64,000 bases of DNA from Rikenellaceae bacterium. Its GTDB lineage: Bacteria > Bacteroidota > Bacteroidia > Bacteroidales > Rikenellaceae. Location of the stretch: contig JAZLBP010000010.1 of the NCBI GenBank assembly GCA_045613745.1, positions 87,136 to 151,135 of the forward strand, in the 5' to 3' direction. Under the pieces are notes generated by a model. The model searched no databases. It had not been told where the DNA came from and saw only the letters and a list, made by a program, of their open reading frames with translations. Every line of letters starts with the position of its first letter. The first letter of the stretch is position 1. Below are positions 3,500 through 8,728 of this stretch, in pieces. A program made the translations under genes and the position numbers.

Positions 3500-4525
3500 C
3501 TAAATATCAATTGGCACGGGATCGTCGTAGAGATGTTGGTCTGTATGAAGAATCTTCGCTCCACCGTATCGCTCCACCGCGTAGTAGAATTCATTATAGT
3601 GGTTTGACTCCACACCGTGACAGAGTTCGTGCACGATTACTGCGTCAACTTGCAGAGGTGTGCATTTCATCAGGTGCATCGAGAGGTCAATATGCTTGTC
3701 TTCGGGGTAAAAGCAACCAAGCGTTGAGGTGCCGCGCGAGATATGGCAATATGAGTAGCCAAGGCCGATGCGCTCCGAGATAGTTTTAAGTCGTTGGGGA
3801 AGATACTCCTCGGCGGCTAATTTCATTAGTTTTAGGCCATATCGGATAATCGCCTCGCGCGAAATGCGCTCCTCAAAACGAATCGTGCTCGGAGCAATAA
3901 TTGTGTAGCGCATACCCTCGCGTCGGTAACTAAACGTATTATCGCCTCCTCGCTCTAAACGGAGTTGAAAGAGAGGATAGTCACGGCTGAGTGTTTCGTC
4001 GAGTACCTCAGGCAGATGGCTTTGACACTCTGCGCGTTTCTGCTCACGCACTTGTAAATCATTCCACAGCCACGCAACAGCCATATCATAGGGTCGCTCT
4101 TTGTCGATGGTCACCTCGGCATAATCCTCTTGGATGCGGCAACTATACACTCCACCCCTCTTGATTTTCACACGCCCTATGCCCCACACACGCATCTCGT
4201 CGGGCGTGGGTTGCGGTTGCGGTTTTTCGGCCTCCAAGTTGTCAGCGAGTGTCTTAATCCATTCGCCGTTTGGGTCTTTATAGCGCAACCCAAGCACCGC
4301 TAAACGATACCACTTCAGGGCAGTATAGGAGTCTTGAACGACCCCACGTCCGTTATTGTGCGCCCAACCCAACCAAGCAGCCACAACAGGTCGCATCTGA
4401 AATCTGTAAATTGATTCATATAGTGACCGATACAGCAAGGCAACAGCCTCACTATCGTGCATCTTGTCGGCCCGAAAGAGGTCAACGGCCCGCTGGAAAT
4501 ATGATTTCGGGTTGTTCATCTTCAA
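3500..4525 (-). CDS. YgjP/DUF45-type (M48-like) zinc metallopeptidase with an N-terminal Sel1-like repeat region
   Basis: C-terminal VHELCHGVESNHYNEFYY (HExxH...H) in a DUF45-like context. The N-terminal AAWLGWAHNNGRGVVQDSYTALKWYRLA resembles a Sel1 repeat. Confidence 0.7.
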   Translation of the reverse strand: MKMNNPKSYFQRAVDLFRADKMHDSEAVALLYRSLYESIYRFQMRPVVAAWLGWAHNNGRGVVQDSYTALKWYRLAVLGLRYKDPNGEWIKTLADNLEAEKPQPQPTPDEMRVWGIGRVKIKRGGVYSCRIQEDYAEVTIDKERPYDMAVAWLWNDLQVREQKRAECQSHLPEVLDETLSRDYPLFQLRLERGGDNTFSYRREGMRYTIIAPSTIRFEERISREAIIRYGLKLMKLAAEEYLPQRLKTISERIGLGYSYCHISRGTSTLGCFYPEDKHIDLSMHLMKCTPLQVDAVIVHELCHGVESNHYNEFYYAVERYGGAKILHTDQHLYDDPVPIDI

Positions 4526-4780: not shown

Positions 4781-4788
4781 TATATTTG
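4781..4788 (+). promoter_or_regulatory. Bacteroidetes-type -7 box (TATATTTG) upstream of the 5AR operon
   Basis: Matches the TAnnTTTG consensus, about 50 nt upstream of the ATG at 4838. Confidence 0.45.
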
Positions 4789-4837
4789 CAGGTTGATTTG
4801 CAACTTTTCAGAAACCGAAACATCCACGTAGTGGATA

Positions 4838-5638
4838 ATGCAAACATTTTATCAAACTATGATGACACTTGACGGATTTTATACTTTCCTGACGGTAATG
4901 GCAGCCATTGCCGCAGTTGTTTTCGTGGTACTCTTCTTTGTGGATGCAGGCTACGGAAAATTCCTCAACCCCAAATTCGGCCCCACCATTCCTAACCGCA
5001 TCGGATGGGTACTGATGGAGTGCCCCGTATTCATTGCAATGACCATCGTATGGTTGCTCTCGGAGCGCACCTGGGAGGTTATGCCGCTGGTATTCTTTGC
5101 GATTTTCCAAACACACTACTTCCAACGCTCGTTTATCTTCCCGATGCTGATTCGCGGCAACGGTCGTATTCCTATCAGTATCATGTTGATGGGCGCAACT
5201 TTCAACACCCTCAACGCGCTGATGCAGGGTGGTTGGATCTTCCACTTCGGAGCGATGGTAAACCCCGCGATGTATGAGATTAGCTGGTTGTGGTCGTGGC
5301 AGTTTATCGTAGGTACTTTGATGTGGGCTGCGGGCTTCTTTGTGAACCTGCAAAGCGACTACATCATCCGCCACCTACGCAAACCCGGCGACACCCGTCA
5401 CTACATCCCCCGCGGAGGTATGTTCCGCTATGTGTCGAGCGCCAACTATTTTGGCGAGTTTATGGAGTGGTGCGGATTTGCCCTTCTGACTTGGAGCCCC
5501 GCGGGTGCAGTGTTCGCAATTTGGACATTTGCAAACCTCGGTCCTCGTGCCAACTCCATCTATCATAAATACGAAAAAGAGTTCGGCGAGGAGTTTTCCA
5601 AACTCAAACTGAAAAGAATGATTCCTTTCATTTACTAA
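4838..5638 (+). CDS. 3-oxo-5-alpha-steroid 4-dehydrogenase (steroid 5-alpha-reductase, SRD5A) family membrane protein
   Basis: 266 aa and polytopic. The C-terminal GGMFRYVSSANYFGEFMEWCGFALLTWS matches the SRD5A-family signature. Confidence 0.8.
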   Translation: MQTFYQTMMTLDGFYTFLTVMAAIAAVVFVVLFFVDAGYGKFLNPKFGPTIPNRIGWVLMECPVFIAMTIVWLLSERTWEVMPLVFFAIFQTHYFQRSFIFPMLIRGNGRIPISIMLMGATFNTLNALMQGGWIFHFGAMVNPAMYEISWLWSWQFIVGTLMWAAGFFVNLQSDYIIRHLRKPGDTRHYIPRGGMFRYVSSANYFGEFMEWCGFALLTWSPAGAVFAIWTFANLGPRANSIYHKYEKEFGEEFSKLKLKRMIPFIY

Positions 5639-5662
5639 GCAAAAACAAAATCACACAATAAA

Positions 5663-6898
5663 ATGAGTAACACCAAAGATTCTCTGCTGTTTACCCCCTA
5701 TCAACTGGGTAACACTACCCTGCGCAACCGCACCATCCGTTCGGCTGCGTTCGAAGGAATGGGCAAAGATTTCAATCCCACTCAAAAACTCAAAGACTAT
5801 CACGTCAGCGTTGCACGCGGCGGTGTAGGTATGACCACTCTGGCCTATGCCTCGATTAACCGTAGCGGTATTTCGTTCAACTCGCAACTCTGGCTGCGCG
5901 ACGAAGTTGTTCCCGCGCTCCGCGATATTACCGACGCAATCCACGCCGAGGGTGCTGCTACAAGCATCCAAATCGGCCACTGCGGAAATATGACCCACTG
6001 GTCAACCGCAGGCAGCTTCCCCGTGTCGGCATCCAATGGTTTCAACCTCTACTCGCCCACCTTCCACCGCCGTATGTCGTACGACGAGATTCGTCAGACT
6101 GCCAAGGACTTCGGCACCGCAGTGCACACCGCCCACGAGGCAGGTTTCGACTGTGTGGAGGTACACGCAGGTCACGGCTACCTGATTTCGCAATTCCTGT
6201 CGCCGTGGACCAACCGCCGTCGTGACGAGTTCGGTGGCTCGCTCGAAAACCGCATGCGTTTTATGAAGATGTGCCTTACCGAGGTTATGGAGGCTGCTGC
6301 CAAAGAGGGAATGTCGGTGCTGGTGAAACACAATATGGAGGATGGCTTCCGTGGCGGTATCCAAATCCCCGAGAGCATCGAAATCGCCAAGGAGATTGAG
6401 AAATTCGGTGTAAACGGCATCGTACTGTCGAGCGGCTTTGTAAGCCGTGCGCCTATGGCCGTTATGCGCGGACGTATCCCGACCAAGACTATGAGCTACT
6501 TTATGGGTTGGAACGAGTGGCTGCAAAAGATTGTGGTTGACCTGTTCGGCCAATGGCTCATCAAACAATACGACTTCGAGGAGTGTTTCTTCTTGGAGAA
6601 CGCCAAGAAGTTCCGCGCCGCGCTCAAAGGCCCGCTGGTGTATGTGGGTGGTATCGTGAGCCGCGAGGGTATCGAGAAGGTACTCGACAGTGGTTTCGAG
6701 ATGGTACAAATTGCGCGCGCGCTCATCAACGACCCCAACTTTGTGAACAACCTCAAAGCGGGCGATATGTCAACCCGTTCGCGTTGCGACCACAAAGACT
6801 TCTGCATTGCGCGTATGTACTCCAAAGATATGATGTGCTGCCACAACTGCACCGAGGAGCTGCCCAAGCGCGTACGCAAAGAGATTGGACTGTTGTAG
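5663..6898 (+). CDS. NADH:flavin oxidoreductase, Old Yellow Enzyme / 2,4-dienoyl-CoA reductase-like TIM barrel with a Cys-rich tail
   Basis: HAGHGYLISQFLSPWTNRRRDEFGGSLENRMRF OYE motif. The C-terminal CDHKDFC...CCHNC cluster is present, but there is no FAD/NAD(P) C-terminal domain. Confidence 0.85.
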   Translation: MSNTKDSLLFTPYQLGNTTLRNRTIRSAAFEGMGKDFNPTQKLKDYHVSVARGGVGMTTLAYASINRSGISFNSQLWLRDEVVPALRDITDAIHAEGAATSIQIGHCGNMTHWSTAGSFPVSASNGFNLYSPTFHRRMSYDEIRQTAKDFGTAVHTAHEAGFDCVEVHAGHGYLISQFLSPWTNRRRDEFGGSLENRMRFMKMCLTEVMEAAAKEGMSVLVKHNMEDGFRGGIQIPESIEIAKEIEKFGVNGIVLSSGFVSRAPMAVMRGRIPTKTMSYFMGWNEWLQKIVVDLFGQWLIKQYDFEECFFLENAKKFRAALKGPLVYVGGIVSREGIEKVLDSGFEMVQIARALINDPNFVNNLKAGDMSTRSRCDHKDFCIARMYSKDMMCCHNCTEELPKRVRKEIGLL

Positions 6899-6901
6899 GC
6901 T

Positions 6902-7729
6902 ATGCTGGGACGTATCGAAAAGGGAAGCCGCACGGCACTCGTAACGGGTGGCGGTAGCGGTATCGGCAAGCAGCTGGCGCGTCAGTTGGCACGCCGTGGC
7001 TTCAACCTTCTGTTGGTGAGCCGCAATAGCGAGCGCCTGCAAGCCGCTGCCGACGAAATCAAAGCGGAATTTGGTGTCGAGACCGCAACTTACAGCCTCG
7101 ACTTGGCTGTACAGGACTCGGCCTACCGACTCTACGACTACTGCAAGGAACAGGGCCTCACCATCGACCTGCTGATAAACGACGCGGGTATGTTCATCTA
7201 CAACGACGTGCTCAAATGCGACACCAAGCGCATTGAGGACATTCTGAACCTGCACGTTGTGACCCTCACGCTGATGTGCCGTCTGTTTGGCAAGGATATG
7301 GCAGAGAGAGGTTGCGGATGGATTCTCAATCTGGCGTCATACTCCAAGTGGATGTGCTGGCCCGGTTTGAGCGTGTATAGCGCAAGCAAAAACTATGTAG
7401 AGAGCTTCTCGAAGGCGTTTGCTGCCGAGATGCGCGAGAGCGGTGTGAAGGTTATGGCTGTGTCGCCTGCGGGTGTTACAACCGACCTTTATGGCCTGCC
7501 CGAGAATCTGCAAAAGGTGGGTCTGTACTGCGGTGTACTGTGGACTCCGAGCCTGATTGCCAAGGTGACGCTCAACGCGCTCTTCTTTGGCCGTCGCAAG
7601 GGCCTTGTAATGGCAATCCGCAGCTATGTACCCGGCCTGCTGAATGTGGTGGTAATTCCGCTGCTGACGATTCTTCCCCGCAGCATTGTGTGGGTTATGC
7701 GTCAGTGCACCAAATCGTTACAAAGATAA
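6902..7729 (+). CDS. Short-chain dehydrogenase/reductase (SDR)
   Basis: TGGGSGIGKQLA (TGxxxGxG) and YSASKNYV (YxxxK). Starts 3 nt after the OYE stop codon. Confidence 0.88.
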   Translation: MLGRIEKGSRTALVTGGGSGIGKQLARQLARRGFNLLLVSRNSERLQAAADEIKAEFGVETATYSLDLAVQDSAYRLYDYCKEQGLTIDLLINDAGMFIYNDVLKCDTKRIEDILNLHVVTLTLMCRLFGKDMAERGCGWILNLASYSKWMCWPGLSVYSASKNYVESFSKAFAAEMRESGVKVMAVSPAGVTTDLYGLPENLQKVGLYCGVLWTPSLIAKVTLNALFFGRRKGLVMAIRSYVPGLLNVVVIPLLTILPRSIVWVMRQCTKSLQR

Positions 7730-7738
7730 ATCGGATAT

Positions 7739-8368
7739 ATGGCAAAAGTTAAGAACCTGCTGTTCGACCTCGGCGGAGTGCTGGTCGATTTGTGGTTGGA
7801 GAAGTGCTTGAAGGCATTTCACGACCTCGGCTTCGAGGGTATTGACAACGAGCTGCTCAACCCCTACCACACCGACGGAATGTTTGGCAACAGCGAGCTG
7901 GGTCTGGTGTCGGAGGATGAACTGCGCAACTATGTGCGCGAGCAGGCGGGAAACCCGAGTATCACCGACAAGCAAATTGACGACGCCTACTATGAGTTCA
8001 TCGGCGAGATTCCCGAGTACAAGCTCCAAATGCTGGCCGAGCTCAAAAAACACTATAATATCTATATGCTGAGCAACACCAGCTCGTTTGTATATCCCCG
8101 CATCGCGCGCCAGGAGTTTACCAAACTGGGCGCAACGGTGGAGGATTACTTCGACGGCATCTACTTGTCGTATGAGTTGCATTTGGCCAAGCCCGACCCC
8201 AAGGTGTTTGAGCACATTTTGGAGGACGCAGGCATCCGCGCCGAGGAGACTCTGTTCTTCGATGATAGTCAGGTAAACCTTGACGCAGCAGCAGAGCTCG
8301 GCTTCCAAACCTATCTGGTTGATGTGCAAGAGGATTTCCGCCACGTATTTGAGGAGTTGGAAAAATAG
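7739..8368 (+). CDS. HAD-superfamily hydrolase (subfamily IA-like)
   Basis: LLFDLGGVLVDL motif I and FFDDSQVNLDAA motif IV. Starts 9 nt after the SDR. Confidence 0.8.
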   Translation: MAKVKNLLFDLGGVLVDLWLEKCLKAFHDLGFEGIDNELLNPYHTDGMFGNSELGLVSEDELRNYVREQAGNPSITDKQIDDAYYEFIGEIPEYKLQMLAELKKHYNIYMLSNTSSFVYPRIARQEFTKLGATVEDYFDGIYLSYELHLAKPDPKVFEHILEDAGIRAEETLFFDDSQVNLDAAAELGFQTYLVDVQEDFRHVFEELEK

Positions 8369-8379
8369 AGTTTGCAAAG

Positions 8380-8486
8380 TCCGAAAAAAGGATTAACTTT
8401 GCGGTCGCAAAATCGCCTCACAAGGGGCTGAAATTGCAAAAGTTGTATTATGAGGGCGAGCAAAATTCAAAAAGCACCTTGTAAGA
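8380..8486. repeat. Degenerate relative of the ~120-nt structured repeat (copy E)
   Basis: Same length and shared blocks with copy B (AAGGATT, TTGCG, TGAGGGCGAGCAAAA at the same offset, AAA..CACC), but the central hairpin and closing helix are not preserved. Confidence 0.3.
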
Positions 8487-8499
8487 CAGCTTTCAAGTT

Positions 8500-8574
8500 C
8501 GGGGTGTAGCGCAGCCCGGTTAGCGCACCTGCTTTGGGAGCAGGGGGTCCCGCGTTCGAATCGCGGTACCCCGA
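8500..8574 (+). tRNA. tRNA-Pro (anticodon TGG)
   Basis: CGGGGTG acceptor pairing with TACCCCG, anticodon loop CTTTGGGAG, T-loop GTTCGAATC. Followed by a terminator hairpin. Confidence 0.9.
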
Positions 8575-8728
8575 CACAAAAGAAAGGCCTATCCAAGTTT
8601 TGGGTAGGCTTTTTTAGTATGTTGATTTTCAGCCCAATAATAATAATACAAAAAGCCGCTGAAATATTTGGAATTACTACTCCTTATTACTATTTTGGGG
8701 GAAAATAATCAACCTAACACACTTTACT

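Follow-up and report, generated by a model that had tools for sequence, protein, structure and literature searches.

The 64,000-nucleotide stretch of contig JAZLBP010000010.1 analysed here (assembly GCA_045613745.1, positions 87,136 to 151,135; referred to as the window) contains a four-gene operon that is a further copy of the known A-ring cluster of the Bacteroidales. It represents the Rikenellaceae-type form of this cluster, in which the only short-chain dehydrogenase (SDR) belongs to the subfamily called SDR1 below, and it has retained a gene for a HAD hydrolase. The products of the operon probably isomerise and reduce the A ring of steroids or bile acids that bear a 3-oxo group. The predicted conversion of the bent 3-oxo-5β into the flat 3-oxo-5α compounds is well supported by orthology, and no such support exists for isoallolithocholic acid (isoalloLCA) as end product. 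The host is an uncultured Rikenellaceae-type gut bacterium whose genome, 97.8% complete, comprises 1.8 Mb in 15 contigs. Rikenellaceae bacterium SIG167 and Alistipes sp. UBA934 are among its same-genus relatives.

The reference for this assignment is the cluster described by Li et al. (10.1101/2021.01.08.425963), in which the genes for a 5α-reductase (5AR), a 5β-reductase (5BR) and a 3β-hydroxysteroid dehydrogenase (3β-HSDH) follow each other in this order (Bacdor_03091/90/89, Parmer_04016-18 and Bvu_1964-66). In that study, lysates containing Bacdor_03090 oxidised 3-oxolithocholic acid (3-oxoLCA) to 3-oxo-Δ4-LCA, the latter was reduced by Bacdor_03091 to 3-oxoalloLCA, and purified Bacdor_03089, a protein of ~31.7 kDa recovered from the soluble fraction, formed isoalloLCA. 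The deletion of the cluster in Parabacteroides merdae led to the loss of all these products. Adjacent 5AR and 5BR genes have been reported for most gut Bacteroidales (10.1101/2024.03.08.584156).

Organization of the operon

The following features, given in window coordinates, make up the operon.

4781..4788, plus strand: Bacteroidetes-type -7 box TATATTTG, by its motif match probably the one promoter shared by all four genes
4838..5638, plus strand: 5AR, an SRD5A1/2-type 3-oxo-5α-steroid 4-dehydrogenase and membrane protein of 266 aa, or 259 aa if translation starts at 4859, the more probable site (PF02544)
5663..6898, plus strand: 5BR-type short Old Yellow Enzyme (OYE) of 411 aa, a predicted flavin 3-oxo-Δ4 dehydrogenase/reductase (PF00724, no FAD/NAD(P) domain)
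6785..6838, plus strand: C-x-H-x3-C-x10-C motif in the OYE tail (C375, H377, C381 and C392), a possible metal or iron-sulphur (Fe-S) site, the conservation of the motif being assessed in 88 homologues
6902..7729, plus strand: SDR1, a classical SDR of 275 aa whose C-terminus is moderately hydrophobic (PF00106)
7739..8368, plus strand: lineage-specific fourth gene for a 209-aa hydrolase of the HAD-IA phosphatase type, YihX-like (PF00702/PF13419)

An earlier reading of the window, made from the letters alone and called the original prediction here, had placed four tightly packed genes behind one -7 box and had named them as an SRD5A-family reductase, an OYE without the FAD/NAD domain, a classical SDR and a HAD hydrolase. 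Both points hold. All four open reading frames lie on the plus strand and are separated by 24, 3 and 9 nt, and TATATTTG is the sole plus-strand match to TAnnTTTG between 4781 and 8393. This motif is enriched in the window, with 72 matches against 29.7 expected. The scans for generic sigma-70 promoters and intrinsic terminators gave nothing above chance. The gene identities are borne out by the Pfam matches and by the quoted motifs, namely GGMFRYVSSANYFGEFMEWCGF in the 5AR, and TGGGSGIG and YSASK in the SDR.

The 5α-reductase

The first gene product matches PF02544 with 141 bits (E 3.6e-41; cut-off 22.6) and is 61% identical to the 5AR of Parabacteroides acidifaciens. In the comparison with known structures, it matches the bacterial PbSRD5A (PDB 7C83) with E 6e-57 and human SRD5A2 (PDB 7BW1) with E 4e-39, and a TECR-like protein with only E 5e-5. 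The SRD5A structures thus match far better than the TECR-like protein, and the reading of the 5AR as a polyprenol reductase or TECR is rejected on this ground. The residues E61, Y94, D174, R181, E207, R237 and Y245 are invariant across the alignment of the 5AR homologues, and they align with E57, Y91, D164, R171, E197, R227 and Y235 of SRD5A2, respectively. E57 and Y91 of SRD5A2 are catalytic, and the other five are residues of the NADPH site. With human SRD5A2 and PbSRD5A the window 5AR shares the family, the length and the aligned catalytic Glu and Tyr, but it differs from them in its bacterial operon context, where it is paired with a predicted flavin Δ4-dehydrogenase. Translation probably begins at the second ATG, at 4859, because the homologues begin there and because the orthologue in one relative (G004) has a stop codon upstream of it.

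The PF02544 proteins of the Bacteroidales fall into two clades. The members of the first are 48-100% identical to the window 5AR, and their genes are followed by OYE and SDR genes. The members of the second (L106-L115) are 35-41% identical to it and have no OYE or SDR neighbour. Proteins of the second clade (e.g. L106:5773-6582 and L107:6314-7069) outscore the window 5AR against the Pfam model.

The short Old Yellow Enzyme and its tail

The second gene product matches PF00724 with 190 bits (E 8.8e-56), and the Pfam scan gave no match to a FAD/NAD(P) or Pyr_redox domain. It shares 58% identity over 405 aa with the OYE of P. merdae (P0289), a protein of 408 aa and 45.35 kDa. Since this mass fits the size of ~45.3 kDa given for the validated 5BR (10.1101/2021.01.08.425963), the short OYE is the normal form for the cluster. 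A truncated gene is ruled out, as all 88 of 88 homologues share the length and the tail. The HxxHxY motif (H168, H171 and Y173) is invariant and aligns with HAAHGY of YqjM. The AlphaFold model (mean pLDDT 82, pTM 0.85) consists of a TIM barrel and a tail segment of low pLDDT. Its top folds in the PDB are FadH (1PS9) and 2-naphthoyl-CoA reductase, marginally ahead of the classical OYEs.

The likeness to BaiCD noted in the original prediction is confined to the N-terminal part of the BaiCD model. Of its 642 positions only 4-257 are matched, and the score of 182 bits lies far under the cut-off of 825. The OYE TIM barrel is common to the window protein, to BaiCD and BaiH of the Clostridium scindens bai operon and to Escherichia coli FadH, which provide the best NCBIfam and fold matches, and in the window OYE, too, a conserved Cys/His motif stands directly behind the barrel. 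However, the whole C-terminal FAD/NAD(P) domain of these enzymes is absent (411 aa against ~640-670 aa). The original prediction had also spoken of a Cys-rich tail. Residues 375-396 do hold five cysteines, but the conservation is limited to four positions, C375, C381 and C392 being invariant and H377 being 97% conserved. FadH holds its 4Fe-4S cluster by C-x2-C-x3-C-x11-C at the equivalent place, and the tail of the window OYE may for this reason hold a variant of such a site, for a metal or an Fe-S cluster. It differs from the FadH pattern of four cysteines in having three cysteines and one histidine. By this motif and by the missing C-terminal domain, the protein falls outside the BaiCD/FadH type. 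The profile searches of the PDB gave no match reaching the tail.

The window OYE is 84-86% identical to the OYEs of several metagenome-assembled genomes (MAGs) labelled Alistipes sp. (L028, L029, L037 and L069) and just 67-76% identical to those of some genomes of its own genus, a pattern that is absent from the 5AR and the SDR. The history of the operon may be mosaic.

Two subfamilies of short-chain dehydrogenases

The third gene product is a classical SDR (PF00106, E 2.7e-41) with TGGGSGIG, NDAG, S146 and Y159-x3-K163, and the corresponding features TGxxxGIG, NxAG, Ser and YxxxK are conserved in 84 homologues. Two subfamilies of SDRs are associated with the cluster, for which we use the names SDR1 and SDR2. 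The sequence identity is 40-63% within SDR1 and 40-59% within SDR2, and it is 23-31% between them. The proteins of SDR1 have 29.8-30.5 kDa and a moderately hydrophobic C-terminus; those of SDR2 have 31.2-31.9 kDa and are devoid of a hydrophobic tail. Parabacteroides carries SDR2 only, an RDH12-like soluble protein of 283 aa. In Coprobacter and the Muribaculaceae SDR1 is followed by SDR2, and in the Rikenellaceae-type clade, to which the window belongs, SDR1 alone is found. SDR1 has orthologues in A. putredinis (Alistipes putredinis; 49% identity) and in Barnesiella viscericola. Its label at JGI is merely "short-subunit dehydrogenase", and the protein atlas search returned generic SDR names.

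Li et al. reported an extra HSDH ahead of the 3β-HSDH (10.1101/2021.01.08.425963), and the order of SDR1 and SDR2 in Coprobacter and the Muribaculaceae matches this arrangement. By gene arrangement, SDR1 would thus correspond to the "putative 17β-HSDH" of these authors. We infer that the validated 3β-HSDH is an SDR2 protein, because the mass and the solubility of this subfamily fit Bacdor_03089 and because the Parabacteroides congener carries SDR2. The three genes of P. acidifaciens span 2865 bp, and the PCR sizes of the P. merdae knockout imply 2.86 kb. To the extent that SDR2 is equated with the validated enzyme, the third gene of the window is not an orthologue of Bacdor_03089/Parmer_04018.

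The genome of the host contains no SDR2 orthologue, the best SDR2-like match showing 28% identity (E 9e-9). It is this lack, together with the different subfamily of the SDR that is present, that leaves isoalloLCA as the end product without support. The original prediction had likened the operon to the 5AR-5BR-3β-HSDH clusters and had suggested a route to (iso)allo-LCA. The first claim is confirmed by the gene order and by the identities of the 5AR and the OYE with their Parabacteroides counterparts, and it does not extend to the third gene. From the second, the formation of the 3-oxo-5α compound can be kept by orthology, and the last step cannot.

Synteny and phylogeny

The gene order was compared at 67 loci with at least 3.5 kb of sequence downstream of the 5AR, which are distributed as follows.

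5AR-OYE-SDR1: 35 of 67 loci
5AR-OYE-SDR1 and a second SDR (19 SDR2, 1 unclear): 20 of 67 loci
5AR-OYE-SDR1-HAD: 6 of 67 loci
5AR-OYE-SDR2: 2 of 67 loci
5AR alone: 4 of 67 loci

The OYE gene adjoins the 5AR gene at 63 of these loci, and SDR1 stands directly after the OYE at 61. The synteny that the original prediction had expected in relatives is thereby established. The 5AR-OYE-SDR triad is kept in most same-genus genomes with a 5AR, and it is conserved across families too. The scan of contigs for relatives covered the 80 closest, with no Phocaeicola or Parabacteroides among them. Loci were named by exact cluster look-up, which identified L122 as P. acidifaciens, L116 and L121 as Coprobacter and L118 as Barnesiella propionica. 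The P. acidifaciens OYE falls into the same 90%-identity cluster as P0289 of P. merdae. With a locus labelled Bacteroides sp. (L095) as the starting point, a protein search gave Muribaculaceae-like matches and no Phocaeicola.

A FastTree phylogeny of the concatenated 5AR and OYE sequences (90 rows), a quick, midpoint-rooted tree used for grouping only, separates two clades with 100% support. The Rikenellaceae-type clade comprises 52 rows, 38 with SDR1 only, 14 with SDR1 and HAD and none with SDR2. The second clade contains the other Bacteroidales, mostly with SDR1 and SDR2 and in a few cases with SDR2 only. The window shares the 5AR and OYE clade and the SDR1-only state with A. putredinis and Millionella massiliensis. 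Most members of this variant lack the HAD gene, and in this respect the window differs from them.

In three same-genus genomes, the 5AR gene stands without a complete OYE or SDR gene alongside (L018 in G005, L019 in G010 and L017 in G008), and G008 keeps only residues 1-184 of the OYE. These cases suggest a decay of the operon in some lineages. At another locus (L024, G012:C1:1411000-1423000), the genes for the 5AR, the OYE and a C1 peptidase are each broken by stops or frameshifts. The genome is a single contig and 64% complete, and assembly errors are a more likely cause here than real pseudogenes.

The HAD gene

The fourth gene product matches TIGR01509 with 60.6 bits (cut-off 29.4), and all equivalog models remain far under their cut-offs. 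The protein is intact and YihX-like, with the HAD motifs I-IV in the form of FDLGGV, LSNTS, KPDP and FFDDS. The HAD gene was regarded in the original prediction as foreign to the described clusters. This is correct, and within the Rikenellaceae-type clade the gene proves to be a recurrent addition. It occurs in 6 of the 17 same-genus relatives, every time at the 3′ end of the operon, and in the same-genus genomes without an operon HAD, several of which are incomplete, it was not found elsewhere.

The chances are about even that the HAD gene is a mere passenger at the 3′ end of the operon and takes no part in the pathway. HAD-IA phosphatases are generic, and we know of no phosphorylated intermediate in this pathway. 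Furthermore, 38 of the 52 Rikenellaceae-type rows do without the gene, and HAD homologues of 27-41% identity are present in genomes that have no 5AR. Against such a passenger status stands the fact that the same-genus HAD is found at the operon end only. Moreover, the HAD-bearing loci are scattered and often early or deep-branching in the clade, six changes being needed on the 5AR and OYE tree, and their HAD proteins are just 38-48% identical to that of the window. This fits a long co-inheritance and points to a gene that joined the operon early and was then lost repeatedly, and not to one inserted recently by chance. We regard the HAD gene as a probable accessory gene of the Rikenellaceae-type clade, without an assigned pathway step.

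Proposed function of the operon

We propose that the short OYE interconverts 3-oxo-5β substrates and 3-oxo-Δ4 enones by means of its flavin. The membrane-bound 5AR would then use NADPH to reduce the Δ4 bond from the other face, giving 3-oxo-5α ("allo") products. SDR1 would probably act next by reducing a keto group, most likely the one at C3. The gene content, the synteny, the conserved catalytic residues and the relations to the Parabacteroides cluster (orthology for the 5AR and the OYE, none for the SDR) are observed in the sequences. The substrates, the direction of flux, the step given to SDR1 and any step of the HAD are predictions from them. With the isoalloLCA or "indirect allo-bile-acid" cluster of the Bacteroidota the operon has the first two enzymes, their order, the short OYE architecture and an SDR as third gene in common. 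It is distinguished by SDR1 in place of SDR2, by the lack of SDR2 in the genome and by the extra HAD-IA gene, as well as by its uncultured Rikenellaceae-type host, the genome of which has ~1.8 Mb.

Several points weigh against this proposal. The enzymes of this organism are known from their sequences alone, and the co-transcription of the four genes from TATATTTG, although likely, is itself deduced. The window SDR1 is just 24% identical to the SDR2 of P. acidifaciens (P0301) and thus belongs to another subfamily than the Parabacteroides enzyme. The equation of SDR2 with the validated 3β-HSDH was reached in turn through the synteny of a congener, the size and the solubility. Finally, the natural substrate may be something other than bile acids, since the relatives include two rumen MAGs (RUG11609 and RUG14714) and bile acids are scarce in the rumen.

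This last point leads to the possibility that the same chemistry serves other substrates, such as steroid hormones, cholestenone-type sterol derivatives or plant 3-oxo-Δ4 compounds in the guts of herbivores. We consider it a minor though realistic alternative. The relatives, besides the two from the rumen, are mainly MAGs from the ruminant hindgut and from horse, bird and rodent guts; the 5AR has a close relative in SRD5A2, a steroid-hormone enzyme; and the moderately hydrophobic C-terminus of SDR1 would suit a membrane-bound lipid substrate. On the other hand, the substrates assayed for the cluster in the cited work are all bile acids (10.1101/2021.01.08.425963; PMC10382948), and most of the ruminant relatives are MAGs of the rectum, the caecum and the colon, where bile acids do occur.

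It is rather unlikely that the operon encodes the complete isoalloLCA pathway, with SDR1 itself as the 3β-HSDH that converts 3-oxoalloLCA into isoalloLCA. The catalytic residues of SDR1 are intact and its gene follows that of the OYE at nearly all loci compared. In addition, Li et al. allow for other 3β-HSDHs in Bacteroidetes, and strains without the cluster HSDH still formed isoalloLCA in their work (10.1101/2021.01.08.425963). However, the distance between SDR1 and SDR2 and the lack of an SDR2 orthologue speak against it. According to a review of Sato et al., a "3β-HSDH-II" is needed together with the 5AR for isoalloLCA (PMC11487953). In another review, Sato et al. 2021 are credited with finding many Bacteroidota that end at 3-oxoalloLCA, and 20 further Bacteroidota strains are said to have gone no further than this compound (PMC10382948).

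Still less probable is a reading in which SDR1, joined by HAD in some lineages, defines a Rikenellaceae-type branch with an end product other than isoalloLCA. This could be a 3α-hydroxy-5α (allo) steroid, a compound reduced elsewhere or the product of a route through a phosphorylated intermediate, and the OYE may here use a metal or Fe-S site of three cysteines and one histidine for electron transfer. The idea that the cluster serves endogenous lipids by TECR/KAR-like acyl-chain or polyprenol reduction can be all but dismissed, for although enoyl-CoA and polyprenol reductases also belong to the SRD5A superfamily and the top NCBIfam matches of SDR1 include a mycolate reductase, a lipid keto-reductase (E 1e-34, far under the cut-off), the 5AR is much nearer to the SRD5A structures than to the TECR-like protein, the orthologues act on bile acids (10.1101/2021.01.08.425963), and a core lipid pathway is disfavoured by the patchy distribution of the cluster, the 5AR not being found in 5 of the 17 same-genus genomes (several of these incomplete) and strong PF02544 matches being present in only ~60 of the 301 order-level genomes. 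The A-ring isomerisation and reduction of 3-oxo steroids or bile acids thus remains our preferred function for the operon.

Neighbouring genes

Downstream of the operon, on the plus strand, lies a tRNA-Pro(TGG) gene (8500-8575) with its own -7 box, TAACTTTG, at 8394, which is 25 nt past the stop codon of the HAD gene. No terminator-like hairpin was found between this stop codon and the tRNA unit. Upstream, between a C1-peptidase gene and the 5AR gene, the minus strand encodes a protein of 341 aa (3500-4525) with a YgjP-like metallopeptidase domain and a weak Sel1 match. The tblastn searches of 14 loci of related genomes found no counterpart of it, and four close same-genus loci have too little space between the C1-peptidase and 5AR genes to accommodate such a gene.

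Implications

The flat "allo" bile acids and steroids produced by the cluster act as antimicrobials and modulate the immune system. The knowledge of which lineage carries which version of the cluster helps to predict the producers of isoalloLCA. As the Alistipes/Rikenellaceae-type clade carries SDR1 only, metagenomic counts of "5AR-5BR-HSDH clusters" may overstate the capacity for isoalloLCA production.

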